Below the pieces are notes generated by a model, which was given only the letters and a program-made list of their open reading frames with translations, did not search any database and was not told the DNA's origin. The position numbers were made by a program, and so were the translations under genes. DNA of 64,000 nt from Hemiscyllium ocellatum (taxonomy: Eukaryota), in assembly GCF_020745735.1 (NCBI RefSeq), contig NW_026867491.1, positions 186,001 to 250,000 of the forward strand. The letters are read 5' to 3'. How positions within the stretch are numbered: the stretch's first letter is position 1; each line of letters opens with the position of its first letter. Of the stretch, positions 7,281 to 62,570 are shown in pieces.

Positions 7281-8146
7281 GTTCACTTTCTCTCTGGTGT
7301 CGGGGTCAATACCTTAATGTCTCGTTTTCTCCCCCTTCCTGGGGACGTTAACCATTTCGTGTCTCATTGTTCATCAAGAAGCTGTGTTGCAGGTTCACCC
7401 TGACTTGACAGGTTTTGCTTCCCAAAATCAGACCTGCTCACTCTCAGCAATATTCCAGTGTTGGGAAAGAAACTAACTTTCAGATGGAGCTATCCAAAAT
7501 TCAGAGAGATGTCAGTCTTGATATTTTTGCTTTTCTGCTCCTGTAAGATCCTGAATCAGCACCTTCAGGGGAATTAGAGTGGATTGAGAACAGAGGGAGA
7601 GCGAGAGAGAGAGTAGGATGATGCTTTCAATTTTGTGGAATAACAAAAGAAAAGAACGTTCTGCAGAAAGTAGAGTTGCTTGTTCTGTATTTCTACCCTG
7701 GACTGACAGTGATGACTTTTGAAATCTTTTTTTTACAGAGTATTTGAAGATCTGAAGACAGAAGTTTCAAAGTCAACAGATGAAGGGCTTATGCTTGAAA
7801 CATCGACTTTCCTGCTCTTCGGATGCTGCCTGACCTGCTGTGCTTTTCCAGCACCGCACCTTTCGACACTGAGTGTCCAATGTCTGCAGTCCTCACTTTG
7901 ATGTCAATGTCTGACAGTCACTCAATCCATTGGAAACACAACAATTTTCGACTGTGATTCTGTGAGAAGGAGCAAAGCTTTTTGGTTCTTGTTTCTATAT
8001 GTTTTCAGAATCAGTGGGACTGGATGAGAGACCGTACTGTTGCAGTGCACTGAGTGTGGAGGCAGAAATAGTCATACGACTTGGAAAGAGGAATTTACGG
8101 CAGGGAGGGGCTCTACACATGTTTGTGTGCAGCTGAAGTTTTGGCC

Positions 8147-8863
8147 ATGGAGAAACCTGAGGGACCCTGCCCCGTAGAGAAACCATGTAAGTGTGGTGAC
8201 TGTGGGAAAAGTTTCCATTTCCCGTCTGCCCTGGAGACTCATCGGCGCACTCACACCGGGGAGAGGCCGTTCCCCTGCACAGAGTGTGGTAAGACCTTCA
8301 GCAATTCCTCTGACCTACTGAAGCACCAACGGGTCCACACGGGGGAGAGACCCTTCAGCTGTCCCAAATGTGGGAAGGGCTTTACCCAGGCCTCCAGTCC
8401 GCTGGCCCACCGGCAGGTCCACACCGGGGAGAGGCCGTTTCTTTGCACCAAGTGTGGGAAGGCCTTCAGCAATTCCTCCGCCCTGCTGAGGCATCAGCGG
8501 GTCCACACGGGGGAGAGGCCCTTCAGCTGCCCCGAGTGCGGGAAGGGCTTTACCCACACCTCCACCTTGCTGACCCACCGGCGGGTCCACACCGGGGAGA
8601 GGCCCTTCACCTGCCCCAAGTGCGGGAAAGCCTTCAGCAATTCATCCGACAGACTGAAGCACCAGCGGGCCCACACTGGGGAGAGGCCCTTCAGCTGCCC
8701 TGAGTGTGGGAAGGGCTTTACACATTCCTCCACCCTGCTGGCCCACCAGCGGGTCCACAGTGGGAAGTGGCCATTCACCTGCTCTTTGTGTGGGAAGGGA
8801 TTCACCCGCTCTTCCCACCTGCAGAGGCACCAGCGAGTTCACATGCCATGGCAGGGGGATTGA
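8147..8863 (+). CDS. C2H2 zinc-finger protein ZNF1 (8 tandem fingers, no KRAB seen)
   Basis: Open ORF with TGERPF linkers; gccATGG Kozak at 8147; splice acceptor ttttacag|AG at 7738/7739; AATAAA at 9397 and 9413. Confidence 0.9.
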   Translation: MEKPEGPCPVEKPCKCGDCGKSFHFPSALETHRRTHTGERPFPCTECGKTFSNSSDLLKHQRVHTGERPFSCPKCGKGFTQASSPLAHRQVHTGERPFLCTKCGKAFSNSSALLRHQRVHTGERPFSCPECGKGFTHTSTLLTHRRVHTGERPFTCPKCGKAFSNSSDRLKHQRAHTGERPFSCPECGKGFTHSSTLLAHQRVHSGKWPFTCSLCGKGFTRSSHLQRHQRVHMPWQGD

Positions 8864-19730: not shown

Positions 19731-21193
19731 GACCTCATACCTTTAATGCATTGTCTGAGCTGAGATGCCACCTTTTGTTATAAAGCCTTATGTTATCTTG
19801 AGAAGGTGCCTTACAGGAAGTTCTGGGATTTACATATTAATGATACCTGCAATCCATTCTAAAAGATGAAAGACTTAACAATCCAGATTTGTTCAATATA
19901 ACATTTCAGTGGCAGGGCGCAAATGTCTTTCCATAAATTCTGTGCCTTATGGTCTTATTCTCCACAACCACCTGATGAAAGAGCAGTGCTCCAAACGATG
20001 GTCCTTCCAAATAAACCTGTTGGACTATAACCCAGGTTTGTGTGATTTTTAACTTTGCCCAGGTTAGGGTGGATTGACCATGTTAAATTATGCATAATGC
20101 CCAGGGTTGTGCAGGTGAGGGGGGATTGGCCGTATTAAAATACCCATCGTGCCCAAGGAGGTGCAGGTTTGTGTGGGATAGCCATGCTAACTTACACATA
20201 GTGTCCAGGGATGTGCAAGGTAGGGGGAATTGGCCAAGGGATATGCGCCAAGTGCTGGCAAATGGGACTAAATTGATTTACAATATCTGGTCAGCATAGA
20301 CTAATTGGACCAAAGATTCTGTTACTCTGCGGCATATCTTAATGACTCTGGCTTTCTACTAACGTTTGTCACATCTCTTCTGTTCAGTTTCTCTCTGGTG
20401 CCTGTGTTAATGCCTTGATGTGTCTGGTTATTCCTCGATAACCAATCCCGATTTATCCTGAATTGACACATTTTGTTTTGCTTCCCAAAATCAGACCTGC
20501 TCACTCTCAGCAGTATCCCAGTGTTGTGAAAGATGTTAACTTTCAGGTGGAGTTATCCAAGGTCTAAGTCTTGACGTGTTTGCTGTTCTGATCCTGAATC
20601 AGCACCTTCAGGAGAATTGGTTAGAGCAGAGAGAGAGAGAGCGAGAGAGAGAACAAGAAAGAAAAGGATGTTCCTTTCAATTTTGTGGAATAACAAAAGA
20701 AAACAATGTTCCACAGAAAGTAGAATAGCTTGTTCTGAATTTCACTCAGTGCAGGGTAGATGACTTTTGTAATCTCTTTTTCCAGAGTATTTGAAGATCT
20801 GAAGACAGAAGTTTCAAAATGAACAGATGAAGGCCTTATGCCTGAAATGTTGACTCTCCTGCTCCTCGGATGCTGCCCGACCTGCTGTGCTTTTCCAGCA
20901 CCACACTTTTCAACACTGACTCTCCCCTGTCTGCGGTCTTCACTTTCACATCAATATCTGACAGTCACTCAATCGATTGGGACAGCCACGATTTTTGATT
21001 ACAATTCTGTGAGAAGGAGCAAACCTTTTTGGTTCCTATTTCAGGACATTTTCATTGTCAGTGGGACTGGATGAGAGACCCTACTGTTGCTGCGCACTGA
21101 GTGTGGAGTCTGATACAGTTATACGGCCTGGAAAGAGGAATTCCCAGCAGTGAGGGGCAGTACATGCGTTTGTTTGTGGCTGAAGCTTCGGAC

Positions 21194-21967
21194 ATGGAGA
21201 AACCGTGGAAGTGTGGTAACTGTGAGAAAGGCTTCCGTACTCCGTCTGACCTGGAGATTCATCGGCGCACCCACACCGGGGAGAGGCCGTTCTCCTGTCC
21301 CAAGTGCAGGAAGGGCTTTACCCAGGTCTCTGCCCTGCTTAGGCACCAGCGGATCCACACGGGGGAGAGGCCTTTCAGCTGCCCTGAGTGTGGGAAGGCC
21401 TTCAGCGATTCATCCTCCCTACTGACCCACCGGCGAGTCCATACGGGAGAGAGGCCCTTCAGCTGTCACGAGTGCAGGAAGGCCTTCAGCAATTCCTCAT
21501 CCCTGCTGAGGCACCAGCGGGTCCACACGGGAGAGACCCCCTTCAGCTGCCCTGAGTGTGGGAAGGCCTTCAGCCGTTCCTCCACTTTGCTGACCCACCA
21601 GCAGGTCCACACAGGGGAGAGGCCCTTCAGCTGTCCTGATTGCGGGAAGGCCTTCAGCTATTCCTACTCCCTGCTGAGGCACCAGCGGGTCCACACGGGG
21701 GAGAAGCCCTTCAGCTGCCCCGAGTGCGGGAAGGCCTTCAGCTATTCTTCCTCCCTGCTGACCCACCGGCGAGTCCATACAGGGGAGAGGCCCTTCTGCT
21801 GTCCCGAGTGCGGAAAGGCCTTCAGCGATTCCTCCTCCCTGCTGACCCATGGGCGAGTCCACACTGGGGAGAAGCCCTTCAGCTGCCCTGAGTGTGGGAA
21901 GGCCTTCACCCGCTCCTCCCACCTCCGGAGCCACCAGCGACTTCACGTGCCATCGCAGGGAGACTGA
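21194..21967 (+). CDS. C2H2 zinc-finger protein ZNF2 (9 fingers)
   Basis: Open ORF starting [10 protein letters not shown] (an in-frame ATG also at 21164); acceptor tttccag|AG at 20785/20786; AATAAA at 22423. Confidence 0.9.
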
Positions 21968-23259
21968 CGGCGAGTGCCATTATCGACTGGACTGTCAACT
22001 CAGTTCTGGGATCTGTTGGGTTTGAATCCCACCGCGGCAGAATTGGAATACGGTCAGAACCTAACGATGAAACCATTTTCTGTGGGGGAGGGGTTGTTTT
22101 TTTTAAGGGAAAGAAACTGCCGTTGTGGGAAAGGATTCGCTCAGTCGTCCCAGCTGCATCCTTTACCCGGTCTGGCCTACACGTGACTCCCGACCCACAG
22201 CAGTCTGTTTCACTCCACACTGCCCCCGTTCCCGGCCCCACGGGTTAAGGCTGTACCAAGGATCCAATTACCAAGGGACAACTCTGTGCTGTCCGATAGT
22301 AGAGAAAGTGGGGTGGGGGAGGGGGAGTGTGTGCGCTTTGACCTTGAGATGTTTAAAAAGCTGCTACTTTCTCTCCCCCTTTTTGCTGGGGGGGATCTGA
22401 AGCTGTAACAAAGTTGGGTCACAATAAAGATTACCTGAACTTACTGCCGGGCTCAGACTCTCATTGAAAGCTTTGAGCTCCAGATGGTCTTTGTTTTAAA
22501 GCTGCTCATTTCTTCCAGCCTCCTGCACTAAGTTTCTAATGTCGTGTATCAGATGGAGCAGTGAATGAGGAGCTGGTATCGTTAGAAATTGTAAATTTTT
22601 AAGGAGTACAGGTGCTGCATCGTTTCATCAACATTGTAAAGGTTACTGGCAGCAGTGGGAGATATGGGCTGTGTTCGCTCGAAACTCTTCTCTTTAAAAT
22701 TTGAGAGTAGCTAAAATGTTATTTCGGAAACATCACTGAAGTCTAAACTCATTTCAATTTTTTAAAAGAGCTGCTGAAATCTTTCTGAAACTTGCACTGA
22801 AATATGTGCAGTTAGGCCACAGCTCAGGACAGGCTGGAAGGGGTGAATGACCTATTCCTCATTTTGTGAAATTGGTTTCAACTATGTAGACATAGTCATC
22901 GAGTTGTAGAGCCGGAAACAAACCCCCCAGTCCATATCTTAAATGAATCTAGTGACCCATTTGCCAGCATTTGGCCTATGTTCATCTGTCCCCTTCCTAT
23001 TCATATCCCATCCAGATGCCTTTTAAATGTTGTAATTGTACCAGCCTCCACCACTTCTGCTGGCAGGTCATTCCATAAACGCACCACCCTCTGCATGATA
23101 ATGTTGCCCCTCAGGTCCCTTTCCCCACTCACCTTCAACCTATGCCTCCTCAGTGCTGGACTCCTCTACCTGGGGAATGACCTTGGATATTCACCCTCTC
23201 CATGCCCCTTACAAATGTCTATAATTTTGAAGAGAAAATGAGGACTGCAGATGCTAGAC

Positions 23260-29960: not shown

Positions 29961-31819
29961 ACGGGGTTGTTGGATTGTTGTATAATGTTGATCTCCTCTG
30001 TACTTTTAATCTTGAAGATTTTTAAAATGTACATTGGCTTCAATTTATGAATTCTAAGTACAGAAGCAAAATATAAACATCTCCTTACATGCATCCCAAC
30101 ATGTGCATAGGAGCCAAGACTGCCTCAAGATTTACTGAGGTGCTGAATCAATAGCTCTTTCCCTTTTGATTAATGAAGGTGGTGCCCAGCAGACTCCTGC
30201 TCACAGTCAGTGTCAGCCTTTATGGGAAAGATAGGATAGCAAAACCGAGACACCAATGTAGCCAAGTAATCTGAACTCACACTTTGGTGCTTTAATCGCC
30301 TCAAACGCATGCCATTCATAATAACGTCAAGGCTATAGGGGTACCAGGCTCCCCAAGACAGCCAGGATGGATAACAAAGAAGAGAGCTGAAGTGTTATCC
30401 TTATCAAGCCTGTAACGTCTTCACAAATCTCCAACAAGTTAGTTAAATGCAGTGTCCCTGTCAGAAATACCTTGCAGACTCTTCCTACTCAATCCACCTT
30501 TCTCCATGTGACTACTAATTTTGACCAGAATAAGTATTACTGGAAGCTTCTCCACCAAATTTAAACTGGCAGGTGGGACTAGATTGGGTTGGGATATCTG
30601 GTCGGTATGGACGGGTTGGACCGAAGGGTCTGTTTCCATGCTGTACATCTCTATGACTCTATAATCACTGAGGTTAGCATTACAACCTTTCTTAAACCAG
30701 GCTGCAATGTTTGCAGTTCTCCAGACTTCTAGCACCACCTCCAAGTCCATGGAAGACTGAGAAATTGTGGAAGCCATAATTTATATCGTCCCTTCCTTCA
30801 AGATTGTTGGATGCATTTCATCAGTGCCTTGTCAAACTTTAAGTACCAAATGCTTATCGAAGACTTCTTTCATGTAAATTTTGAACTCTTGGGAGGTCAT
30901 GTTGTGGCTGTACAGAACATCGGTCAGACCACTGTTGGAATATTGCATGCAATTCTGGTCTCCTTTCAATGAAAAGATGTTGTGAAACATGAAAGGGTTC
31001 AGAAACGATTTACAAGGATGTTGCCAGGGTTGGAGGATTTGAGCTATAGGGAGAGGCTGAACAGACTGGAGCTGTTTTCCCTGGAGTGTTGGAGCCTGAG
31101 AGGTAACCTATAGAGGTTTAAAAATTTATGAGGGGCACGTATAAGATAAATAGACAAAGTCTTTTCCCTGGGTTCGGGTCTGTTTCCATGCTGTACATCT
31201 CTATGACTCTGTTGGTTGCATCTGCAAGATCCTGAATCAGCACCTTGAGGAGAATTAGAGCGAAGTGAGAACAGAGGCGGAGAGCGAGTGGGATGGTGCT
31301 TTCAATTTTGTGGAATAACAAAAGAAAAGTATATTCTGCAGAAAGTAGAATTGCTTGTTCTGAATTGTCACCCTGCACTGAATGTAATGACTTTTGTAAT
31401 CTCCTTTTACAGAGTATTAGAAGATCTGAAGATGGAAATTTCAAAATCGACAGATGAAGGCCTGATGCCCGAAGCATTGACGCTTCTGCTCCTTGGATGC
31501 TGCCTGACCTACAGTGCTTTTCCAGCATCACACTTTTGAACTCTTAACTCTCCAGTAACTGCAATCCTCACTTTCACATCAATGTCTGACAGTGACACTG
31601 GGACATCGGGACAGCAACGATTTTTGACTGTGATTCTGTGAGAGGAGCAAAGCATTTGCTTCCTGCCCAAGTACATTTTCAGAATCTGTGGTACTGGATG
31701 AGAGACCCTACGTTGCAGCGCAGTGAGAGTGGAGCCTGAAACAGTTATACGGCCTGGAAAGACAAATTCACGGCAGGGTGGGGCTGTACCCACGTTTGTG
31801 TGCGGCTGAAGTTTCGGCC

Positions 31820-32704
31820 ATGGAGAAACCTGAGGAATCCCGCTCTGTGAAGAAACCGTGGAAGTGTGGCGACTGTGGGAAAGGCTTCTGTGCCCCGTCT
31901 GCTCTGGAGACTCATCGGCGCAGTCACACCGGTGAGAGGCCCTTCAGCTGCCCCGAGTGCAGGAAGGGCTTTACCCAGGCATCCGCCCTGCTGACCCACC
32001 GGCGGATCCACACGCGGGAGAGGCCTTTCAGCTGCCCTGAGTGTGGGAAGGTCTTCAGCAATTCCTTTGCCCTGCTGAGGCACCAGCGAATCCACAAGGG
32101 GGAGAGGCCACTCTCCTGCCCCGAGTGCGGGAAGGCCTTCAGTGATTCCTCCCACCTTCTGACACACCGGCGGGTCCGCACAGGGGAAAGGCCCTTCAGT
32201 TGCTCTGAGTGCAAGAAGGCCTTTACCCAGGCCTCTGCCCTGCTGATCCACCAGCGGCTCCACACAGGGGAGCGGCCCTTCAGCTGCCCAGAGTGCGGTA
32301 AAGGCTTCAGCGATTCCTCCACCCTGCAGACCCACCAGCGGGTCCACACGGGGGAGAGGCCCTTCAGCTGTTGTGAATGTGGGAAGTGCTTTACCCAGGC
32401 CTCTGCCCGGCTGAGACACCAGCGGTCCCACACTGGGGAGAGGCCCTTCAGGTGCCCCGAGTGCGGGAAGGGCTTTGCCCGGGCCTCCAACCTCCAGACC
32501 CACCAGCGGATCCACACGGGGGAGAGGCCCTTTAGTTGTCCCGAGTGCGGGAAGTGCTTTACCCAGGCCATCACACTTCAGAAACACCAGCAGGTCCACA
32601 TGGGGGGGAGGCCCTTCGATTGCCCCAGGTGCAGTAAGGTGTTCACCTGCTCCTCCCACCTGCAGAGGCACCAGCAAGTTCACGTACCATCGCAGGGGCA
32701 TTGA
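31820..32704 (+). CDS. C2H2 zinc-finger protein ZNF3 (10 fingers; finger 4 lacks its last His)
   Basis: Open ORF; gccATGG at 31820; acceptor ttttacag|AG at 31412/31413; AATAAA at 33249. Confidence 0.9.
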   Translation: MEKPEESRSVKKPWKCGDCGKGFCAPSALETHRRSHTGERPFSCPECRKGFTQASALLTHRRIHTRERPFSCPECGKVFSNSFALLRHQRIHKGERPLSCPECGKAFSDSSHLLTHRRVRTGERPFSCSECKKAFTQASALLIHQRLHTGERPFSCPECGKGFSDSSTLQTHQRVHTGERPFSCCECGKCFTQASARLRHQRSHTGERPFRCPECGKGFARASNLQTHQRIHTGERPFSCPECGKCFTQAITLQKHQQVHMGGRPFDCPRCSKVFTCSSHLQRHQQVHVPSQGH

Positions 32705-33514
32705 AGGAGTGACGGCTGAGTGCCATTATCGACTGGAGTATTAACCCAGTTCCGGGCCCTCCCGGGTTCGAATCCTGCCGTGGCAGATGGTGAAATTGGA
32801 ATTCAGTAAGTAATCTGGAGTTCCAAGTCTAACGATGAAGCCATTTTTGGGGGGAGTTGGGGTGGGGTGGGGGTGAAGGGTGGGAGAAAACCCCCATCTG
32901 ATTCACTCACGTCGTTTTTCGGGAAGGAAACTACTGTTGTGGGAAAGGATTCACTCAGTCGTCCCAGCTGCATCCTTTACCCTGTCTGGCCGATGGTTGA
33001 CTCTACGCACCTCCCCCCGCCATCCCCATTCTCTCCCCCACTGGGCCCCTCCTCTCACCGGCAAATGAACAGGGAGAAACCTACTTGGATACAGAGTATA
33101 CGTTGAAATTGCTGAGTGAGGCAATACTTCCTACAGGTTAAGAAAGGGAGTGTGTGCGCTTTGACCTTGAGCTATTTTTAAATGAAAAGCTACTTTTTCT
33201 ACGCCTTTTTGCTGGGAGGAATCTGAAGCTGTAACAAAGTTGGGTCACAATAAAGGGTTACCTGAACTTACCGCCAGGCTCAGACTCTCATTGAAGGCTT
33301 TGAGCTTCAAATGGTTTTTGTTTTAAACCTGTTGATTTCTTTCAGCCTCCTGCACTAAGTTTCCAATGTCGTGTATCAGATGGAGCAGTGAATGAGTAGC
33401 TAGTATTGTTGGAAATTGCAAATATTTCAGGAGTGCAGGTACTGTGTCGTTTTATCAGCATTGTAAAGTTTACTGGCAGCACCAGGAGGTGTGGGCTGTG
33501 TTAATTAGAAATTA

Positions 33515-40000: not shown

Positions 40001-42790
40001 CACACATTGACGGGAATAATTAAAATATGGGACTCCTTCCAGAGATATGGCTCCAGGATGACAAGGATTGGATCCTCAATATTGAGGAGGTGATCAAATG
40101 GAAAGCAAGACAAAGGGAGAGGGTTAGCACAGGTAATCAAAGCACTGATCACAGGGTAATCTGGTGTCAGCTCCGACTTCAGGTCCTGATTTCTCACCCC
40201 TCCTGGATTTCTGCTGATGCTTTGACCCCTTTTTTTTTACATCTTTCGGAACAATAAGTCAATCCAGACCCCCAATCTCCCAGCCTGTTAACCATCCAGA
40301 CCCCCAATCTCCCAGCCTGTTAACCATCCAGACACCGAGTGTAGTCATAGCAGGGAATAAAACAAGAAATGTGAACCAAAATTAGAAATAAGTAGGTGCT
40401 TGTTCTTAATATTGTTCAATAGTAAGTAAACCAGAAATACTGCTCTTCCAGGATTCCTACAGTGCCTTATTTGAGGAATTCTCTCACCCTCACATAGAGC
40501 TATTAGTACCCACTATGATTTACAACAATACTTATGCCAACAGAAAAAAAGTCTGTTGTCAAATTGACAGAGATATACAGCATAGAAACAGACTTTTTCT
40601 CTCACTCATGCACAAGTCCATGGGGGTGAATTTGCAGAATGATATTTGCTAATGCATTCCATTTTCCACAAAAAATGCACAATCTGCAGGCAGTTAATAC
40701 ATGTAATATTTTGTAAATTTCACATTGGAAATAGAACCAGAATGACTCTAGATTGGGATACTGACCTCGCACCTTGAATGCATTGTTTGAGCTGAGGTGT
40801 CTCCTTTTGTTATAAAGCCGTAAAGTTATCCTGAGAAGGTGCCTTACAGGAAGTTCTGGGATTTACATATTAATGATATCTGCAATCCATTGTAAAAGAT
40901 GAAAGACTTAACGATTCGGGTTTGTTAATATATCATTTCAATGCCAGGACACTGTAATGCTTTTCCAGAAATTCTGTATCTTATGATCTTACACTCCACA
41001 ACCACCTGATGAAGGAGCTGCGCTCCAAATGCTAGTGCTTCCAAATAAACCTGTTGGACGATAACCTGGTGTTGTGTGATTTTTAACTTTGTCCAGGTAA
41101 GGTTTGATTGGCCAGGCCAAATTACCCATAGTGCCCAGGGATGTGCAGGTTAGGGTGGATAGGCGGTGCTAAATTACCCACAGTGCCCAGGGATATGCAG
41201 GTTAGATGTATTAGTCAGAGGGTAAATGTAGAGCAATAGGAGTAGGGGAATGGTGTGGTGAGGTTGCTATTCGGAGGTGGGTGTGGACTTGTTAGAACAG
41301 CGAGGGTTCTCTGAAGAGAAGGGATTTTTGTGAACTGTTCAGGAGGGGGGGGGAAGCGGTGTATGGGAGGAGAGGGGAGGGATGGGTGGAGTGCGGGGGG
41401 AGGAAATTTGTTCACTTGTAGCAACTGGAGTGAACCCAGGGACGGAGCAGACTCTGCAAACTCAGATATGTGTCTTAATTACCCGGGTAAAGAGGGTTGG
41501 AAGGATAGGGTGTTGCTGTTTTCCCGAGTGCGTCAGAGTGTGAGGGGTAACCTGATAGACTTTTTTAAAATCATGAGGGGCATGGATTGGGTAAATAGAT
41601 GAGGTCTTTTCCTTGGGACGGAGAGTCCAGAACTCGAGGATAATAGATTTAAGGTGAGGGTAGGGGGAGGGAGACTGGAAAGAGACCTAAGGGGCAACAT
41701 TTTCATGCAGAGGATGGTGCATGTATGGAATGAGCTGCCAAAGGAAGTGGTGAAGGCAGGTACAATGACAACATTTAAAAGTCATCAGCATGAGTGTATG
41801 AAAAGGGAGGGTTCAAAGGGATATGGGCAAAACGCTGGCAAATGGGACGAGATTAATTTTGGATATCTGTTTGGGCACAGAAGAATTTGACTGAAGTGTC
41901 TGTTTCTGTGCTGTACATCTCAATGACTCTGGCTTTCCACGAATGTTTGTCATGTCTGTATGTTCAGTCTCTCTGGTGGTGGTGTCAATGCCTTGATGGT
42001 TCATTTTGCTTCCCCCCCCACATCCCCACTTCCTGGGAATGTTAACCATTTTGTGCCTGGTTGTTCTTCAAGAACCTGCATTGCAGGCTCCCCTGAATTG
42101 ACATTTTTTTGCTTCCCAAAGTCAGACCTGCTCACTCTCAGCAATATCCCAGTGTTGTGAAAGATATTAAATTTCAGGTGGAGTTATCCAAAACTCAGAG
42201 ATGTCAGTCTTGACGTTTTTGCTTTTCAGCCCCTATCAGATCCTGAATCAACACCTTCAGGAGAATGAGTTAGAGCGGAGGGCGGGAGAGAGAGAGAGAG
42301 TGGGATAGTGCTTTCAATTTTGTGGAATAACAACACAAACAAATTGCTTGTTCTGAATTTTTATTCTAGACGGACAGTAATGAATTTTCTAATCTCTTTT
42401 TACAGAGTATTTGAAGACCTGAAGACGGAAGTTTCAAAATCAACAGATGAAGGACTTATGCCCAAAATGTCGACTCTCCTGCTCCTCGGGTGCTGCCTGA
42501 CCTGCTGAGCTTTTCCAGCGCTGCACATTTCAAATCTGACTCTCCAGCGTCTGCAATCCTCACTTTGAAAGTCACTCATTCCATCGGGACCGCAACTATG
42601 GTTCTGAGAGAAGGAGCAAAGCTGTTTGGTTCCTGTTTCAGTACGTTTTCAGCATCAGTGGGACTGGATGAGAGACCCTACCATTGCAGGGCACTGAGTG
42701 TGGAGCCTGAAGCAGTTTTTTGGCCTGGAAAGAGGAATTCAAGGTGGAGAGAGTCTCTACGTGCGTTTGTGTGTGGCTGAAGCTCCGGCC

Positions 42791-43171
42791 ATGGAGAAAC
42801 CAGAGGAATCCCGCCCCGTGGAGAAACTGTGGAAGTGTGGCGACTGCAAAAAAGGCTTCCGTTTCCCGTCTGCCCTGGAGACTCATCGGCACAGCCACAC
42901 GGGGGAGAGGCCATTCCCCTGCCCTGTCTGTGGGAAGGCCTTTACCCAGGCCTCCAACCTCCAGACCCACCGGCGGGTCCATACCGGGGGGAGGCCCTTC
43001 TGCTGCCCCAAGTGTGGGAAGGCCTTCAGGAATTCCTCCCACTTGCTGACCCACCAGCGGATCCACACGGGGGAGAGGCCCTTCAGCTGCCCCGAGTGTG
43101 GGAAGGCCTTCACCCGCTCCTCCGACCTGCGGAGGCACCAGCGAGTTCATGTGCCATCACAGGGGGATTGA
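42791..43171 (+). CDS. C2H2 zinc-finger protein ZNF4 (4 fingers)
   Basis: Open ORF; gccATGG at 42791; acceptor ttttacag|AG at 42405/42406; C-terminus VPSQGD as in ZNF2; AATAAA at 43710. Confidence 0.85.
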
Positions 43172-45076
43172 AGGAATGATGGCTGAGTGCTGTTATCGAC
43201 TGGACTATCAACCGGGTTCTGGGGACTCCCGGGTTGGATTCCCACCGCGACAGATGGTGGAATTGGAATTTGGTCAGAAATCTGGAGTTTAGAATCTAAC
43301 GGTGAAACCATTGTCGGTGGGGTGGGGGTGGAAGAAGTCCCCATTCTTTTTTAGGGAAACAAACTGTCGTTGTGGGAGAGGATTCACTCAGTCGTCCCAG
43401 CTGCATCCTTTACGTGGTCTAGCCTACACATGACTCCAGATCCGCAGCAGTATGATCGACTCTGCACTGCCCATCCAACTAACTTGGATACAGGATACAA
43501 GTTGAAAATGCTGAGTGAGGCAATACTTTCTCTGGGTTAAGGCTGTACCAAGGATCCAATTCCAAAGGGCAACTTGGTGACCAATAATGAAGAAAGTGAG
43601 GGGTTGGAGGGAGTGTGTGCAATTTGACTGTGAGCTGTTTTTAAAACATTGCTACTTTTTCTACGCCTTTCTGCTGGGAGATTCTGAAGCTGTAACAAAG
43701 TTGGGTCGCAATAAAGTTTACCTGAACTTCCCACCGAGCTCAGACTCTCATTGAGAGCTTGAAATTGCAACATGTTTTTGTTTTAAAACTGCTCATTTCT
43801 TACAGGTGAAAGTGAGAACTGCTGATGCTGGAGATCAGAGTCAAGATTAGAGTGGTGCTGGCAACGCACAGCAGGTCAGGCAGCATCCAAGGAAGCAGGA
43901 AAATCGACATTTTTCGGGCAATGTTGATTTTGCTCCTCAGATTGCTGCCTTACCTGTTGTGCTCATTTCTGACAGCCTCCTGTACCATGTTTCCAATGTT
44001 GTGTATCAGTTGCAGCAGTGAATGAGTAGCCAGTATTGTTAGAAATTGTGAATTTTTCAGGAGTGCAGGTACTGCATCATCCCATTGTCATTGTACAGTT
44101 TCCTGGCAGCACTGGGAAGTGGTGGCTGTGTCCACTGCAAACGATTTGGAGGTGCCGGTGTTGGACAGGGTGGATAAAGTTAAAAATCACACAACACCAG
44201 ATTATCTTCCTTCTGGTTTATTTGGAAGCACTGGCTTTTGGAGTGCTGCTCCTTCATCAGATAGCTGTGGAGCAGAATCATAAGACACAGAATTTATAGC
44301 AAAAGCTGATGGTGTCATGCAACTGCTAAGATAGTGAATAAATCTAGATTGCGGATTAGTCTTTCATCTTTTACCATGGGTTGCAGGTTTCAGTTCATTA
44401 ATATGTAAACCCCAGAACTACTTTGAATTCACCTTCGAGATGGTTTAAGGTTTTTCTAAAAATAGGTGGCATCTCAGCTTAGATCCTGCACAAAAGGTGT
44501 GAGGTTCGAGTCTGTATCCCAATCTTGAATCAGATTGGTTCTATTAACTAAAGTGGGAATTTATACAATATTACATGGATTATAAAATATTACATGCTGT
44601 TTGTGTGCTTTTTGAACAAAATTGAATATATCTGCAAATATAATTTTGCAAATGCAATTTCATCCCATAGACTTATGTGAGACTGTGTGCGCACGAGAGT
44701 GTGCGTGCATGTGAGTTTGTACATGCATGCTAATGAAATGTGTGTTTGGAGTATAAGCTTGTGAGACAGTGTGAGTGTTAGGGTGTGTGTGAGTGTCCGA
44801 GACAGCGTGACAGATGAAGGCAAGGCGTTGCATTTTGCTAAAACAAGGAAGGGCAGAACTCGTCCAGTTAATGGTAGGGCCCTGCGTTGTGTTGGAGAAC
44901 AGAGACACGGTGGGAGAGGGGTTCAGGTATGTGCTGTATATAATGAGACCTTGTAATGCTCAGTACGCCTTTCTTTGGGAAGGCGTCCAATTCTGCAGAA
45001 TTTGTTAATAAAATCTTTGTTCTCTTGAATTTGTCCAGAGCGATTATTTAGAAGTGAATTTTCATTTCTAACAACT

Positions 45077-45091
45077 TGGGGGCTCGTCCGG
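45077..45091 (+). promoter_or_regulatory. Primer-binding site, tRNA-Pro
   Basis: TGGGGGCTCGTCCGG equals the first 15 nt of the MLV-type tRNA-Pro PBS and lies 3 nt after the LTR-terminal CA. Confidence 0.9.
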
Positions 45092-45338: not shown

Positions 45339-45620
45339 GGTTTGGTCTCTGATTGATGCGCGAAACTCAAGGATACCTTGTCTTGTCAGGTGTTGTTTAC
45401 GTACCGGAGTCTCTGCGCTCAATCGGTTACCAGGGTTTGGTCTCTGCTTGATGCACAGGACTCAAGGACACCTTGTCTTGTCAGGTGTTGTTTACGTACC
45501 GGAGTCTCTGCGCTCAATCGGTTACCAGGGTTTGGTCTCTGACTGATGCGAAACTCAAGGACACCTTGCCTTGTTTGGTGTTGTTTACGTACCGGAGACT
45601 CTGCGTTCAGTCAGTTACCA
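45339..45620 (+). repeat. Three ~95-bp tandem repeats in the proviral leader
   Basis: Units begin ggtttggtctctg at ~45339, ~45434 and ~45529. Confidence 0.9.
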
Positions 45621-45730
45621 AGGGTTGATTACCTGTTGCCGCTACCCGGTCGATCATAAGGAAATCCGGTGAGTGTGGGATATTCTTGTTTGTCGCACGG
45701 GCGGTTTATTTGCTTGTATTTATCTTCGGC

Positions 45731-47540
45731 ATGGGAAACGGGGGCGCAAGAGTGCCTAAACCGTTGCCTGATGAAGAATCCAAGGGGGTGCCGGATGATA
45801 GCCCGTTAGGACGAATGTTACGTAACTGGGGTCATGGAAAAAGAAAGGGGAAGTCTAGACGAAAAATGGTTAAATTTTGCGAAAAATGGTCACAACAACC
45901 TATTCAAGGGGGTTCTGTTTGGTGGCCCAAATTTGGATCGGACGAGGATTGGGTTTGTCAAATTTTAAATGATCATTTAAAGAATAAATATAATCCAAGA
46001 CTAAAACAGAGAGAAACAGAGAGAGAGAGAGAGAGAGAGAGACATGAGGAGAAAAGGGGATAAAGAAGTAGTGAGACTGTCCCCGCACGGGAGGTCCCGG
46101 TTGGGGAACGGACCACAGGATTTGTTGTAGCCCCATTAAACTCAAATGATATAAGACAACTGAAGTTTTTTTTTTACCAGCAGTTTGCAGTAAGACCGAC
46201 AGAGAGAGAGAGAGAGAGAGAACTGCTTGCAAAACATTTAACTCTCTGTGATTCGGGTTGAATGCACATTTGTTTGTTGGTGATTGAATGAGGAAGTTTT
46301 ATTCACTGGAACTTGAGTTCCAGGATTATTTTAAATGTGATTTTTATGAAAACTTAACATGATTTATTTTCACTATGTGAAGGACAGTTGTAGTTAGGAC
46401 TTCCATAGTTATTATATGAGACCTTGGATTCGGCTATTAGAATTTTTTTAAACTTGAAATGACAAATTATTGTAAGACAGTTATGATTATTTTATGACCT
46501 AAAGTATTGTAATTGAGAAATAGTTAGGAGTACACAAGAAAACTAATTTTGGATCTAAATTAGGATACTAAATTTGGGTGATTACAGTGGGTTTTAAAAT
46601 TTGGGAACTGTATGTATTTTATATTTTAAATATTAAATACTAAATAAATGGATATATATATATGTTTACAGTTTAGGAACAGGATTTAAAGTTAGTCAAG
46701 CATGAATTATTAAAATTGGTGTTTGAGGATATGATAAGTTTGGAACATTACAATATTTCTTAAAAAGTGCCGATAGGGGACAAGGAAATTGGGTTTGTGT
46801 GTGACCCCCTCACCAGTGGGGAGGTCGGAACATTTAAAAGGAAATGACGGTCCTGGATGAGAATCCGATAGGATTGTCAGAACAAATTAATTAATGTTTG
46901 AGGCCCAGTCTATATATGTGGGCTGAGTTAATGTCTATTTTTGAATATACTATTTACTGGGGGAGAAAGGAGACTTATATGGGGATGCTGGACAGGGAAA
47001 GTGTTAATTGAGATTTTTTTAAAAAAAACTAGTAACAGCGCCGGTATTAAGCTTGCCGGACAATTTGGCATGGGAGGGGGATGGTTAGGGGTGAGGACAA
47101 ATATCCCCTTCAGAACCCTAACTGAGACAACCATAATATAGAAAAGTGAAATAATATACTAGACATGCAAAATTTGATAATCCGAGGGATACAAACTTGC
47201 ATCCCCAAACAGCGAAAGTTAGCCAAGGTTTTCGACCTGAGGCAGGGAAAGGACGAGTCTCCCTGTCCATTCTTACACATATTAAGGGAGTCGGTTAGGA
47301 AATGTTCGGGTATAGACCCAGATGGGGAAATAGGATGACGGATGGTAAAGGTTCACTTCGTGACAAAGGCATGGCCTGATATCAGGAAGAAGTTACAGAA
47401 GATAGAGGACGGGAGCGGTAGAAATGAGTCGGAGTTGTTACAGGAGGTTCAGAAGGTATTTGTATAGAGAGGCATAATGGTGGAGGAACGGAAGGCTAAG
47501 ATACTGGTAGCAGTAGTATGGGAGGACTGTATGAAAGACA
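45731..47540 (+). pseudogene. gag: Disrupted gag (MA 45731-46010, AT-rich spacer, CA remnants ~46765-47540)
   Basis: MG myristoylation start; SPLGRML..WWPKFGSDEDWVCQ; SLYMWAELMSILNILFTG; MHR-like RQGKDESPCPFL; HFVTKAWPDIRKKLQKIE. Confidence 0.85.
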
Positions 47541-47876
47541 AAAGGAGTTGGATAAATACGGTGTTTATCTAAACCTGAATATTTATGTCTGTGTGGGCCG
47601 CCCCCCCCTGTAGGAATTTTGTGTTGGTGAAGATTTATGTGTGTCTTTGTGTGTGCAAATTTGATTGTAAAAAAAAAATAGTCTCTGTGGATGTGAGAAT
47701 TTGTGTTTGTGTATGGATTTTTTTTTATAAAAAAGGGCTTCTCAGCTAACAAGCAGTTTAACACTTTGTGGTCTGGCTTGAATTCATCTGTTTGTTAGTG
47801 CATGAATGTTTGAGTGTTTGTCACCTAGAGCGTGAGTCATGAGATATGTGGCTTCGCTGTTTCTCGTTTACTCCAC

Positions 47877-48161
47877 CAGGGATTCCTGACTCAGACCCCT
47901 CCACTCGATATCCACCTCCACAAAGTGGAACCGGGAGACTGGGTTTTGATAAAATCCTGGAAACCGAAGAAACTCCAATCACTCTGGGAGGGACCGTTTC
48001 AGGTGTTACTCACCACCGAAGTTGCCATACGAACAAAAGAAAAAGGGTGGACTCACGCCGCCAGACTAAAAGGCCCGGTGTCGCCGCCCAAAGAGGACTC
48101 TTGGTCGTGTGAGGCCGGTGATGGACTGTTGGTGGTGAAGTTAAAGAAACATCAAAAATGA
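47877..48161 (+). pseudogene. pol: Integrase C-terminal (GPF/GPY) remnant of pol
   Basis: HKVEPGDWVLIKSW..WEGPFQVLLTTEVAIRTKEKGWTH. Confidence 0.85.
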
Positions 48162-50480
48162 ACTCTCTTGGGACTCTTTTGCTACATACTGTATTATTAT
48201 TTGCCTTCCTTTTAGTGGGGAAATTGACTGGTAACTGTGATAAATGCCGCTCTAGGGTTCGGGTGTGGGACACTGAGTTAGACTTACGCGGATCTTTTGT
48301 ATCCCACTCCTCTTATGCAAATAATACTCGCTGTTATGACATATACTCACGCCAAAAGTGCTGGGAAAAAGGAAAACTATACTATCAAGTAAAAAACAGG
48401 GGATATCTCGGTCTGTCTAGGGTTAGGGCCTATCATTGCCCCTTTATGAATTACGAATGGTTGTGTATGTCAGCAGACAGTTTACAGGGACATGCTGCAT
48501 TACCGGAAACAGACAAAAATAGAACTAAAAGGGAATGTGCCAAATGCGGCGCTATAATTCAACTGGGAGATCCTAACTTCTTCTCCCTTTGCCATGATGA
48601 GGAATCACGGGAGGAATGTTGGGAGGATGGGAAATTGTATTATCAAATGTTAAATAAGGGATATATTGGATGGCCTGAGGGGAGGGTCCATGAATGTATT
48701 TGGGAAGAACACGAATGGGTCTGCATTAAAAAAAAGACAGTTGGGATAAGGCTAACAGGCCGTGCGACAAATGCTGCCAAACTGTGAAATGGGGAGACCA
48801 TGTCTTTCCGGGGTCTTTTGTGTTTCACACTAAAATAAGTGATGCCTGTTACAACCGGGAGAAAATGATACCATGTTGGGAGGATGGGGAACATTACTAC
48901 CAGGTATTCAGCCTGGGATATTACACGAGTGGAAATATAGACTGTCCACTTATGGAATAATGGCTCTGTATCAGTTTTACTGGCTCGGCAGCGGACCACT
49001 TTGACCGGGTTAAGGAAATATATCCCGGGTTAGAGAAATCTATTCCAAATTACGATGCCAGAATAGCCGCCTCAGCCAAGGTTTCCTCCCTCTATGAGGA
49101 CATTGAGAAACGGCTTACTCTTCCTGATGTTGTGAAAAATCTCTTTATTGACTTCGTCTCAAATTGCCAAAATTTTAAATGTGACGAGCTGTTGGGTTTG
49201 TGGGGGTCTGCATATGACCGAGCAATGGCCGTGGACAGGGGAGAGTTTGGATGTTCAGGAAATCCTTGAATACAATTGGACTTACTCCAAAAACAGAATT
49301 TATCAAGTCTGGAAATTGCAGAATACCCCGATGGGCCACTTCTGCATTGGGAAAAAAGGGTCCCGCCCAGTTGGTGACAGCCCCTGTCAGCGGGTCTTGA
49401 ATCTCACCACGGACACTTGGTGGCCCCGACCCTTGGGTTGGTTTCTCACCAAACAACCCCTTGGGTTGTCTATCACCCAACAAGGGGATCTTAACTGTAG
49501 GCGGTTGCATCCCACCTCTGATTCCTGGAATTGCAGTGGTTCTGGCCCTTATGCGGGAATGCCGGGAATTAGAGAGGCATGGGACGGTGTTGCCAGGGAC
49601 AGCGGAGGGGGTCCGGCTCCTGATGGTTTATTTTGGATTTGTAGGGATCTGGCGTATTCCAGGTTGCCCGAGAAATGGGGTGGCTTATGCTTCCTCGGTA
49701 TAGTCAGACCGGAGTTCTTTCCCCTCTCACGTGATCAAGGGGCTGACCTGGGGGTTAAGTTGTTCGACTCCCTGCAACGGAGGTCCGGAAAGCTAGCACG
49801 GAAGCGTAGGAGTGCTAGTCAGTGGAATGTCCACCAGTACGGAGACATCCACTTGGCCAAGTGGGGCGCAGATTGGCCACCGTCCCGTATCATTGAGTAT
49901 TATGGGCCGGCAAGTTGGGCTCAGGATGGCTCTTGGGGTTACAGAACTCCAATTTATATGCTTAATCGCATCATTCGCTTGCAGGCGGTGATGGAAATAA
50001 TCACCAACAAAACCGCCTTCGCATTGGAATTACTGGCTAGACAGCAGTCTCAAATGAGGGCTGCAATATATCAGAATCGTCTTGCTTTAGACTACCTGCT
50101 TGCCTCTGAAGGGGGTGTCTGCGGGAAGTTTAACACGACAAATTGTTGTCTGGAGATAGACGATAACTACGAGGCTGTCCTAAAAAAAAATCACCCGGGA
50201 CATCCGTAAAATAGCCCATGTACCTGTCCAGACGTGGCGACCTATAGGGGACGCTAGTTGGTGGAACACGCTTTTTGGGGGTGGCTGGTGGCGCATGGCA
50301 TTAATAATGATGGTGGGTGTCGGGGCCCTGTTCCTCGTTATTCCCTGTCTGGTCCCCTGTGCTAGAGTGTTGATCCAACGCCACATCGCCCAGATGCAAG
50401 CCATTGCCATACCCCAACATGGTACTCATGAACTTAAAGTTCTGCTGTTGAAAAGACAGAAGGACTTCCTTGAGCCGTAA
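48158..50480 (+). pseudogene. env: ERV3-like env with ~5 frameshifts and one stop; open sub-ORFs 48158-48787 and 49148-50209
   Basis: Signal peptide, CWVC, RKRR furin site, YYGPASWAQDGSWGYRTPIYMLNRIIRLQAV, ISD YQNRLALDYLLA and CX6CC. The TM helix lies after a frameshift in the A9 run at 50182-50190. Confidence 0.9.
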
Positions 50481-50531
50481 TTCAGCCGATTCTGTTACGC
50501 ATGCACATCTTAAAAAGAAAAAGGGTGGAAT

Positions 50532-51167
50532 TGTGAGAGTGAGATCTGGCTTAATAAGAATTATTAAGATGTGCATGGCATTATAATCTTTAAACGTGAG
50601 CATTATCATATTGAATAAGCTAAACTTTTTGCTGCTTTAAAACCCAGATTTCTGATGCTATTAAGCTCTCTTTGTATAACCATTTCTGTACTTAAAATAT
50701 TGTCAGCATTGAACCCTCAGAATGGGGAAGTGTTAACAGTTAATAAGAAACAAGCTACTTGGTGCAAGGGTCGGCTTTGTGTTAACAGAATGGAGAAACA
50801 AATCCAGACATCTGCTGATGTATTGTGAAACCACAGGACAAGAATAAAATGTGAGATGTCTGTTGACCTGCTTTGAACCTGCTGCAGAACCACAGAGCAG
50901 AAGAACGACCCTGTGTTTTTCTATGTGGTCAGGATTTGAGACAATGAGAGCATAACGGAAAATTACTGCTAGTTTAGAATGTGAACCCCGTGACTCTTTG
51001 GAGTCAAAGAGGGGAGGGACTTGTGCTGTATATAATGAGAGACCTTGTAATGCTCAGTACGCCTTTCTTTGGGAAGGCGTCCAATTCTGCAGAATTTGTT
51101 AATAAAATCTTTGTTCTCTTGAATTTGTCCAGAGCGATTATTTAGAAGTGAATTTTCATTTCTAACA
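50532..51167 (+). mobile_element. Complete 3' LTR (636 bp)
   Basis: Follows the PPT; TGTGAGA...TCTAACA ends; TATATAA at ~51029; AATAAA at 51101. Confidence 0.9.
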
Positions 51168-51734
51168 AGGTACATAAAGTTAAAAATCTCTCAACACCAG
51201 GTTATCGTCCAACTGGTTTATTTGGAAGCATGGGCTTTGAGTGCAGCTCCTTCATGGGATGTTTGTAGAACAGGATCATAAGACACAACTACCTGATGAA
51301 GGAGCAGCGCTCCAAAAGCTTATGTTTGCAAATGAGCCTGTTGGAGTATCACCTGGTGTGGTGTGAATTTTAACTTCGTACACCCCAGTCCAACACCAAC
51401 ATCTCCAAATCGGGGACATAGTTCTTTGAAAGTTGCATCATTGGTAGACAGGGTGGTGAAGGAGGCGTTTAGCACACTTTCCTTCATTGTTCACACCGTT
51501 CAGTGCAGGAGGTGGGACATCACGTTGAGGTTGTACAGGATATTGGTGAGACCACGTGTAGAGTACTGAGTACATTTCTGGTCGCCCTATCGACGACCAC
51601 AAGTTGTCAGGTAACCTTGTTTCGATTTATAAAGTCATGGGGTGTGTAGGAAAGGTAAATGTCACAGGGGGGAAGAAACGGTGCATCTCCCCTTTTTTTT
51701 TTACTTCTCTTGGCATTTGGACACTTCAATTCTG

Positions 51735-56556: not shown

Positions 56557-57567
56557 ATGGAGAAACCGTGGAAGTGTGGGGATTGCGGGAAAGGATTCCG
56601 CTCCCCCTCCGTGCTGGAGATCCACTGCCGTGTCCACACTGGGGAGAGGCCGTTCAGCTGCTCCGAGTGCGGGAAGGGCTTCACCCAATCGTCTATCCTG
56701 CTGACCCACCAGCGTTTCCACACCGGGGAGCGGCCCTTCACCTGCCCCGTCTGCGGCAAGTGCTTCACCCAGTCGTCCACCCTGCTGACCCACCAGCGGG
56801 TCCACACCAGGGAGCGGCCCTTCACCTGCTCCATCTGCGGCAAGGGCTTCACCGACTCCTCCCACCTGCTGACCCACCAGCGGGTCCACACCGGGGAGAG
56901 GCCGTTCAGCTGCTCGGTCTGCGGCAAGAGCTTTACCCAGTTGTCCAACCTGCTGCGGCACCAGCGGCTCCACACCGGGGAGCGGCCCTTCACTTGCTGC
57001 GTCTGTGGCAAGGGCTTCACCGACTCCTCCCACCTGCTGACCCACCAGCGGGTCCACACCGGGGAGAGTCCATTCAGCTGCTCGGTCTGCGGCAAGAGCT
57101 TTACCCAGTCGTCCAACCTGCTGCAGCACCAGCAGGTCCACACCGGGGAGTGGCCCTTCACCTGCTCTGTCTGCGGCAAGGGCTTCGCCCGCTCGTCCGA
57201 CCTGCTAACCCACCAGCGGGTCCACACGGGGGAGCGGCCGTTCAGCTGCTCGGTCTGCGGCAAGAGCTTCACCCGCTCGTCCACCCTGCTGCGGCACCAG
57301 CGGCTTCACACCGGGGAGCGTCCCTTCACCTGCTCCGTCTGCGGCAAGAGCTTCTCTCACTCGTCCACCCTGCTGCGGCACCAGCGGCTTCACACCGGGG
57401 AGCGGCCCTTCACCTGCTCCGTCTGCGGCAAGGGCTTCACCCAGTCGTCCCACCTGTTCTCACACCAGCAGGTCCACACCGGGGAGCGGCCCTTCACCTG
57501 CCCCGTCTGCGGGAGGGGCTTCGCTTCCTCTCAGCACCTGCTGCGGCACCAGCGGGGGCACAAGTGA
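56557..57567 (+). CDS. C2H2 zinc-finger protein ZNF5 (12 fingers; more divergent subfamily)
   Basis: Open ORF; gccATGG at 56557; acceptor tttttcacag|G at 56306/56307; CSVCGK-type fingers. Confidence 0.92.
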
Positions 57568-57704
57568 CGGGGCCAGCCGCTGTGAGTCACCGCCCAGGGC
57601 TGAACCCTGGGTGGGATGGGGGAGGGTCACTGCAGTTGCTGTGCTCTCATCCCCTTGGCATCCAGTGGTTCTGCGAGCCTGCGACTGCGCATTTCCTCCT
57701 GAAG

Positions 57705-60519: not shown

Positions 60520-62570
60520 TTTTAAAAATTCTCCTGCGTGGAGGGGTGGGGGTATCGCGTGGAACTTGGAATTAATAAACGCGGGAGACGCGTGGAACTC
60601 GGTGGTAACGAGGACCCCGTAGCACAGACTTTAAAATTCCTAGAAGTGAGGGGCATTGGGTAAGGAGAGGGACAGGGGACAGAGACAGACAGAAACAGAG
60701 ATACAGAGAGACCGACACAGGAAGAGAGAGAGAGAGAAAGAGGGAGATAGATAAAGAGAGACAGAAGGTAATAAAGACAAAGGGGAGAGAAACAGAGAAA
60801 AGGGAAGAGAAAGCAAGAGAGAAGGTTAGAGAAAAAGGATTGCGAGAAATAAGGGTTAGGGGTAAGGAGACTCGCAGCAGCCAGCGAAGAGAGAGAGAGC
60901 GAGCCGATCTGTCCCAGCAGCCTGAGGAGAGAGAGAGAGAGAGTGAAAAGAGCTGTACAACTGACAGAAAGTTTAACCCTTTGTGATCTGGTTTGAATGC
61001 ACATTTGTTTGTTGGTGATTGAATGTGTAAGTTTTATTCCCTGGAGCTTGAGTTCCAGGACTGTTTTAAATGTGATTTTTATGGAAACTTAACATGATTT
61101 TTTTTAAGGTTGATGACTTCTGTTCTTTTACAAGTCATGACTGCCTTACTATCCGATTCTAACTAATCTCTTTTATCTTTACATAAAAGCAATATATGGA
61201 GGACAGTTGAAGTTTCAGTTCAACAGTAGGTTGTCGTAAAAACGAAAACTTCCATGGTTATTATCTGTGACCTTGGATTCGGCCATTGTTCATGCATTAG
61301 AAGTTTTTTTTTTAACTTGAATTGGCAAATTCTTGTAAGACAGCTCTGATTATTTTACGACCTATAGTATTGTAATTGAGTAATGATTGGTCAGGAGGAC
61401 TTAAGAAAACTAATTTTGGATCTAAATTAGGGGACTAAAACTGGGTGATCACAGTGGATTTCAAAATTGGGAACTCTATTAATTTTACATTTTAAATATT
61501 GAATACTGAATAAATGGACGTAAATATATAAATAAGTTTACAAGGTAGGAACAGGCTTTAAAGTTAGTCAAGCATGAATTGATAAATTGGTGTTTGAGGA
61601 TATGGGAAGCTAGGAACATTGCAATATTTCTTAAAAGAAAGAAAAAGGGAAGAACGTAACGACTTGTCCCCTTTGGGAAGTGCCAATAGGGGACAAGGAG
61701 ATTGGGTTTGTGCGTGTCCCCCTCACCAGTGGGGAGGTCGGAACATTTAAAAGGAAATGACGGTCCTGGTTGAGAATCCGATAGGATTGTCAGAACAAAT
61801 TGATCTATTTTTGAGGCCCAGTCTGTATATGTGGGCTGAGTTAATGCCTATTTTGAATATACTATTTACTGGGGAAGAGAGGGGACTTATATGGGGATGC
61901 TGGACAGGGAAAGATACAGAAGATAGAAGGGTGGAGTGGGAAAAACCCATTAGATGAATTGTTAGGAGAGGCACAGAAAGTGTTTGTAAAGAGAGAGGAC
62001 GAGAGACAGTAGCAGAAGGCGAAAATGACGGTCGCTGCGGTTGATGAGGTAATTAGGAGAAAAATGGAACCAAGAGTGAGCAACCGGAGCAGCGGGTGAC
62101 AGCATGGAGGGCAGAGAGGAAAGGGGATAGGGAGAGACAAGGAGGAGCATTTGGTAGAGGGTTTGAGCGACAGGGGCAGAGATGAAGGTCTCCACAGGCA
62201 GGATGCCATTATTGTGGAAAGATAGGGCATTTTAGGCGGGAGTGTCCTGATCTATAAAGGGAAGAAAGAGCCATTCCGCTTATGATTTTGATAACGACGG
62301 GGAGGGGGACAACAACTGGCATCATTTCTGAGCAGTCAAGGGTTAACAACCCAGTCATAGATTGGCTGAATAGCACATTCGGTAGATGGGGAACTGTGCT
62401 GGGACAGCTGGCCCTTGGTTTATGCATCTCTGTTGCTATCTTTATTACCTGTGGTTGTTGTTGTATACCATGTATCAGGACGCTTGTGACACGAACAATT
62501 GACCGTGCCCTGACGGGAAAGGATGACCCCCACCCGCATACCAGGCAGCGGTGCTGGAGGAGCCTGTGAT
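60520..62570 (+). mobile_element. Heavily deleted class I ERV related to the 44.9-51.2 kb provirus (spacer, gag CA/NC, env TM tail); LTRs not identified
   Basis: ~60925-61912 aligns with ~46190-47000. Zinc knuckle CHYCGKIGHFRRECP at ~62205-62250. TM DWLNSTFGRWG..IFITCGCCCIPCIRTLVTRTIDRAL. Confidence 0.8.

Follow-up and report, generated by a model that had tools for sequence, protein, structure and literature searches.

The usual picture of a retroviral envelope protein (Env) includes a single receptor-binding domain (RBD). Can a retroviral Env carry several and, if so, how might they be gained and used? This question is raised by an endogenous retrovirus (ERV) env in the genome of the shark Hemiscyllium ocellatum. 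We analyzed positions 186,001 to 250,000 of contig NW_026867491.1 (NCBI RefSeq assembly GCF_020745735.1), a stretch of 64,000 nucleotides here called the window. Unless a genomic locus is named, coordinates refer to the window, and all features of the env-bearing provirus lie on its forward strand. The original prediction, made from the letters of the window, proposed an array of three divergent RBD-like modules at the N terminus of the SU subunit, along with furin-mediated release of the first of them.

Translation of positions 47800-50560 reveals three six-cysteine modules downstream of the Env start and predicted signal peptide (48158-48235), the latter recognized as a hydrophobic stretch ahead of the first CxxC. 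Module 1 (M1; 48236-48466) is 77 amino acids long, module 2 (M2; 48536-48724) is 63 amino acids long, and module 3 (M3; 48763-48969), the proximal unit, spans 69 codons. All three display the pattern CxxC...C...CWExG(K/E)xYYQ...GY...C...W(L/V)C, and M2, the shortest, lacks the GSF(V)SH strand segment. Linker 1 (48467-48535), which is 21-23 residues long and variable, carries RTKR at 48521-48532, a site that is polymorphic in the family. Linker 2 (48725-48762) consists of ~12 residues. DNA alignment scores for the module pairs 1-2, 1-3, and 2-3 are 85.5, 81, and 59, all of which exceed the respective maxima of 52, 46, and 50 reached in 300 shuffles each. At the protein level, BLASTP gives 38% identity for M1-M2 (E 9e-18), 36% for M1-M3 (E 3e-11), and 34% for M2-M3 (E 9e-8; copy L043). 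The triplication of the module is real. The coordinates, the shared pattern, and both kinds of alignment bear out the original prediction on this point, and RTKR between the first two repeats and RKRR at the SU/TM boundary (49799-49810) are likewise present where it placed them. Its view that frameshifts inside M3 hide that module is rejected: direct translation reads M3 in a single frame, interrupted by one stop codon (48958-48960), the reading frame is broken ahead of the module, in the A-rich run between M2 and M3, and the proposed reconstruction of M3 deviates from the direct translation at two places.

The env sits in a deleted provirus consisting of a 5' LTR remnant, a primer-binding-site-like motif, a broken gag, only the integrase C terminus of pol, and a 3' LTR; most of pro-pol is absent. 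The 3' remnant of the 5' LTR (44930-45074) aligns to 51022-51168 at 98.6% over 147 columns, with 0 mismatches and 1 gap. The motif directly following it, 45077-45091, appears to resemble a tRNA-Pro primer-binding site. The gag remnant (45731-47560, end approximate) starts with MGNG; its assignment is suggested by position, and its first 110 amino acids have no match in Pfam. The integrase remnant (47829-48161; Pfam MLVIN_C, E 4e-8) overlaps the env start. Following the array come a spacer (48970-49135) with a frame break near its end, which would occupy the position of helix alphaR in RDR Env, and then the SU core, or proximal domain (49136-49798; CWVC at 49190-49201), the RKRR site, and the TM subunit (49811-50480). 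The TM contains an ISD, the YQNRLALDYLLA segment, and CX7CC at 50120-50149. Pfam matches to the TM, TLV_coat and Ebola-like HR1-HR2, both fall below the cut-off, and the TM of copy L043 matches the syncytin-2 TM (E 3e-9). A purine tract precedes the 3' LTR (50532-51168, start approximate). The accessible text of PMC9967133 defines gamma-type Envs by CXXC in SU and CXnCC in TM and gives K/R-X-K/R-R as the furin motif. The shark protein has the CXXC, a CXnCC with n = 7 (typically 6), a K/R-X-K/R-R site between SU and TM, the ISD, and a location between integrase and 3' LTR; by the definition in that text it is a gamma-type Env. The window copy itself is dead: its frame is broken in the A-rich run of linker 2, near 49135-49160, and near 50180-50190, the last of these placing the membrane anchor in another frame, and M3 contains the stop noted above.

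Several other features mark this region. Three direct repeats of ~95 nucleotides occupy the proviral leader between the primer-binding site and gag (45339-45626). The AT-rich interior of the broken gag (46198-47001) matches 60927-61913 of the window at 83-94%, which suggests that a different repeat has landed in gag or that the second site is a further piece of the provirus. Clustered C2H2 zinc-finger open reading frames flank the provirus, at 42698-43171 (called by Pfam zf-C2H2) and near 7300-8800, 20500-22200, 31200-33000, and 56600-57600 (called by self-similarity).

Is the array a peculiarity of one dead copy? A search of the shark's own genome returned 148 matches. Querying it with a sister family's proximal module, we counted by hand ~56 three-module, 3 two-module, and 9 one-module loci, all lower bounds. 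We inspected 30 of the 56 three-module loci, each of the 3 two-module loci, and all but one of the 9 one-module loci. All three modules lie in one open frame in 9 of the 30 inspected three-module copies. Divergence among 24 three-module loci, 6 near-identical loci having been dropped, is 0.8-8.3% with a median of 4.6%, and therefore the family is young. A domesticated secreted Env would be expected at a single conserved locus whose truncated, secreted open reading frame is under selection; here there are ~56 loci with scattered breaks. The stretch occurs, whole or in part, in eleven public runs from 5 studies of four organisms. No RNA run is listed as containing it, an absence that is uninformative about expression. 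Among the 4 runs that we examined, contigs from two other organisms (X9 record 22, X10 record 12) join M1 to M2, and run X9 covers all 30 bins; no contig listed for these 4 runs spans the entire array. An assembly artefact is rejected on the grounds of the 9 open three-module frames in the shark's own genome and the contigs from other organisms that bridge M1 and M2. The two annotated Hemiscyllium proteins of the family that we examined, P0001 and P0032, begin at M3, and so annotation hides the array.

A frame break just after M2 recurs in 14 of the 30 loci, across all three types of linker 1 (window 48158-48787 and L002-L007, L009, L012, L014, L016, L018, L019, and L022). Where the upstream frame is open, this break would give a secreted product of signal peptide, M1, and M2, ~209 amino acids long, with a suppressyn-like layout. 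Contigs of runs X1 and X10 that cross the A-rich run have run lengths other than that of the window, so the break may be slippage or assembly error. Separately, in L010 (G000:C190:24789764-24793345), a second TM-encoding fragment lies on the opposite strand ~2 kb from the env start, and L011 displays the same pattern.

What is the module? A profile built exclusively from 14 shark modules (A1), searched against 177,635 PDB sequences, matches suppressyn (8oui_D; PDB 8OUI) over residues 44-113 and profile positions 1-75, with E 4.3e-8 and all six cysteines in register. This is its sole significant match in the PDB, the next having E 0.61, and it has no sequence match to syncytin-1 SU. Among individual modules, M3 of copy L043 matches suppressyn 43-116 with E 7e-7, and M2 alone gives E 0.23. 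Similarity to the suppressyn-family env P0027 runs past M3 into the NLF motif and SU core (E 1e-16). We modeled M1 with AF2 from an 18-row alignment; one of those rows is suppressyn-like, so the fold comparison and the sequence match are not independent lines of evidence. The model, of medium confidence (pLDDT 65.6), has three long strands (34-44, 47-54, and 75-79). Compared with 48,161 chains, it ranks 8oui_D first (Z 5.8, a value below the tool's reliable level; rmsd 3.2; 66 aligned) and syncytin-1 second (8ouj_D, residues 24-108; Z 3.1, rmsd 4.2, 64 aligned). Foldseek also places 8oui_D first (prob 0.97, E 0.015). Because the Z values are middling, the weight rests on the sequence match. 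The module corresponds to no Pfam family, a fold search of BFVD yielded nothing under E 0.001, the ESM Atlas gave no usable match for the array and only generic Env clusters for residues 40-240 of P0002, and no relative appeared among IMG/VR viral contigs. Thirty of the 30 database proteins matched by the module profile, 7 chondrichthyan and 23 suppressyn-like, have one module each; neither human ERV3-1 nor any bird, reptile, or RDR Env is among them. These libraries hold annotated proteins and miss unannotated ERVs, and thus three-module Envs are not shown to be confined to this genome. The module is, as judged by sequence, a homolog of the suppressyn RBD and, as judged by the modeled fold, a predicted homolog of the syncytin-1 RBD. 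The claim of a divergent array of RBD-like modules gains support from this homology and from a module number that varies from one to three among sister families. One macaque suppressyn-like protein, P0028, has many tandem repeats of a short FTxHTH strand segment inside the module, possibly the annotation of a minisatellite expansion.

The sister families suggest how such an array could arise. Comparison of SU cores makes the two-module family the sister of the three-module family (support 100/99), with 78-80% identity between them; between the three-module and one-module families, identity is 61-62%. The modules tell a different story. M1 of copy L043 is 65-67% identical to the unit of the one-module family versus 49-51% to the units of the two-module family, a closeness that could also stem from shared receptor constraint and not from recombination. 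M2 groups with the first module (MA) of the two-module family (support 86/84, in a module tree that carries long-branch warnings), and M3 has its nearest counterpart, at 55% identity, in the second module of that family. Along the DNA, the signal peptide is nearer to the two-module family (76-77% vs 55-68%), M1 and the following 27 nucleotides are nearer to the one-module family, and 58 contiguous nucleotides of M2 match the single unit of L031 at 91% identity and that of L035 at 81%. Because module and SU-core relationships disagree, the data point to module-level recombination. An apparent RBD swap occurs, moreover, in a one-module env, L038 (G000:C9:9048700-9052700), whose SU core is 95-97% identical to those of L031 and L032. 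Its module, which lacks the third cysteine, is 50% identical to that of L031 and 68% identical to a Chiloscyllium Env module. Some one-module copies (L032, L036, and L037), and only those, carry a 7-residue insertion before the third cysteine of the module. The families also differ at the SU/TM boundary: in L031-L042, of the one- and two-module families, the sites there are no more than minimal R-X-X-R (RPSR, RKPR), and in the three-module family RKRR follows a short insertion of basic residues.

We think it probable, from these patterns of identity, that modules were added to the array one step at a time at its N terminus, as reverse transcriptase switched templates. Switching would occur between co-packaged sister families, at homologous modules. 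M3 would be the native unit of the three-module SU core, M2 and M3 together would correspond to the two modules of the two-module family, and M1 would have been acquired from the type found in the one-module family. On balance, we favor the reading that the window holds the env of a young, multi-copy, gamma-type shark ERV family whose SU begins with three tandem suppressyn/syncytin-1-type units that are putative working receptor binders. The occurrence of one, two, and three modules in sister families suggests that receptor-binding units can serve retroviruses as building blocks, to be added and exchanged.

What might the extra units do? According to the accessible text of PMC9967133, gamma-type Envs use mostly SLC receptors, and that of PMC13709493 describes one syncytin-1 RBD per ASCT2 trimer, bound through a beta-sheet clamp. 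For the idea that the added modules are putative working receptor-binding units on short linkers, the case seems to us evenly balanced. Such units could bind an SLC-type multi-pass transporter with added avidity, or they could bind more than one receptor or receptor variant. Use of several receptors or variants would let the virus escape when resident sister Envs block a receptor. Of the families found, the three-module one has the most copies, with ~56 loci versus 9 and 3 (lower bounds), although copy number can reflect amplification unrelated to Env. A bolder and more speculative form of this idea, one that we hold only tentatively, makes the suppressyn-type RBD a mobile cassette swapped between co-resident families of cartilaginous fish. 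The three-module Env would then be multi-specific, with up to nine units per trimer and different receptors for different units, and would bypass interference; the break after M2 might also yield a secreted two-module blocker.

The independence of the units is the point on which the strongest rival differs. The modules may instead pack together into a composite RBD that has just one receptor site, an enlarged version of the two-sheet RBD modeled for RD114/MPMV-type Envs. The brevity of linker 2 and the segment missing from M2 fit such packing, but every module keeps its own six cysteines, linker 1 is longer and variable, and single modules have apparently been exchanged between families (L038; M1), as befits independent units. 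We consider a composite RBD unlikely.

A second rival assigns binding to M3 alone and makes M1 and M2 a shield, decoy, or spacer against antibodies. We compared variants common to at least 2 of the 24 loci as raw synonymous and non-synonymous counts, which are small numbers to be read against ~4 non-synonymous sites per synonymous site. The SU core, with 42 synonymous and 25 non-synonymous shared variants, appears to be under strong purifying selection, and the TM has 9 and 11. M1 exhibits at most a weak purifying signal (10 and 18). M2 looks constrained, with 14 and 14 on 34 and 155 sites, respectively. M3, with 5 and 20, has no purifying signal within the family. Private variants appear near neutral. 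That M3 is the module most variable in amino acids while M2 is conserved and truncated would suit binding by M3, which, in addition, is placed where the single RBD sits in one-module Envs. A decoy, though, is expected to diversify, and M1 is closer to the only RBD of a sister family than the SU cores are to each other. Binding restricted to M3 therefore strikes us as improbable.

The remaining functional rival is the one that the original prediction drew from RTKR: furin would cut linker 1, and the M1 released in soluble form would block receptors as suppressyn does or would assist entry as a cofactor. Suppressyn itself is a soluble single unit, which lends this idea some appeal. Linker 1 ends with RTKR in 6, RDNRKR in 9, and KRRPKG or KRPKG in 15 of 30 loci, counts that come from related loci and hence are not independent. 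Only the 6 copies with RTKR conform to K/R-X-K/R-R as given in the accessible text of PMC9967133. The 15 copies with KRRPKG or KRPKG have no Arg at the cleavage position, and among the 9 open three-module copies, 8 have RDNRKR and 1 has RTKR. Arg at P6 can substitute for Arg at P4 in furin sites, and the basic, non-canonical RDNRKR could still be cut. The linker variants are separated by a few substitutions and a 6-nucleotide indel. A conserved internal furin site is thus rejected, RTKR being a minority variant of the linker, and release of the first repeat finds no support as a feature of the family; shedding of M1 appears very improbable. Finally, the notion that the repeats arose by duplication without function in a defective lineage, or through faulty assembly, draws on a window copy broken at four places with most of pol missing and on near-neutral private variants, but it is largely refuted, and we regard it as extremely improbable, given modules that are mutually only 37-44% identical yet in 9 of 30 copies still have six cysteines and an uninterrupted frame, the presence of the family in runs of other organisms, and the strong purifying selection on the SU core of the same family.

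How, then, does this multi-unit Env compare with known systems? In the literature searched, including PMC9967133, PMC13709493, PMC10536682, and PMC13461226, with partial coverage of primary papers, we found no description of a three-unit Env or of a suppressyn-type fold in sharks. Repetition of such units is not new in principle because RDR-group RBDs have been modeled as one or two tandem 3-strand sheets, as described in the accessible part of a preprint (bioRxiv 10.1101/2023.10.07.561363). In view of that modeling, the premise of the original prediction, one RBD unit per gamma-type SU, is incomplete. The tandem sheets may be equivalent to the shark module. Members of the RDR interference group use ASCT1/ASCT2 as receptor. 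Like the shark Env, syncytin-1 and other RDR-type Envs have an N-terminal RBD (in syncytin-1 the N-terminal 124 residues, per the accessible text of PMC1524976), a spacer, and then the CXXC core. The RDR group also has the motif SDGGGX2DX2R after the RBD (same source); that motif is absent after M3 in the window and in the translated one-, two-, and three-module copies, and the shark Env differs further in its three units and in the CX7CC of its TM. MLV/FeLV/EnvP(b)1-type gamma Envs share the CXXC, the furin site, the ISD, and the CXnCC in TM. In them, a lone Ig-like domain serves as the RBD, with a proline-rich region after it, and no match of this kind was found for the shark module.

The closest relatives by annotation are the "ERV3-1 Env polyprotein-like" proteins of Chiloscyllium, Hemitrygon, Hypanus, and Hemiscyllium, which carry the same module. 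Those of Chiloscyllium and Hemitrygon, the two compared, are 52-60% identical to the shark Env in the SU core and 84-88% identical in the TM. They differ in possessing one module, in 7 of 7 scanned. The closest structural relative is suppressyn (ERVH48-1/HERV-Fb env; 8OUI chain D), whose six-cysteine unit is matched over its full length. Beta-sheet clamps hold suppressyn and syncytin-1 on the transporter ASCT2, as reported in the accessible part of PMC13709493. The related env P0027 continues into an NLF...C.VC...QWPW SU core, as does the shark Env. The host has domesticated suppressyn as a secreted, ASCT2-binding fragment with one unit, whereas the shark protein has three divergent units in a full SU-TM Env encoded by a multi-copy family.

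What appears to set the shark Env apart, judging from sequence comparisons, is the three units, the one-two-three series within one genome, the signs of module swapping, and the link between a shark ERV Env and suppressyn. The series, whose members are sister families within one genome, illustrates a way for SU architecture to expand, and it provides a natural comparison for avidity versus multi-receptor use. Given a predicted suppressyn/syncytin-1 RBD fold in shark and ray retroviruses, with a sequence-level homology unrecorded by Pfam, SLC1-type receptor use in cartilaginous fish becomes testable.
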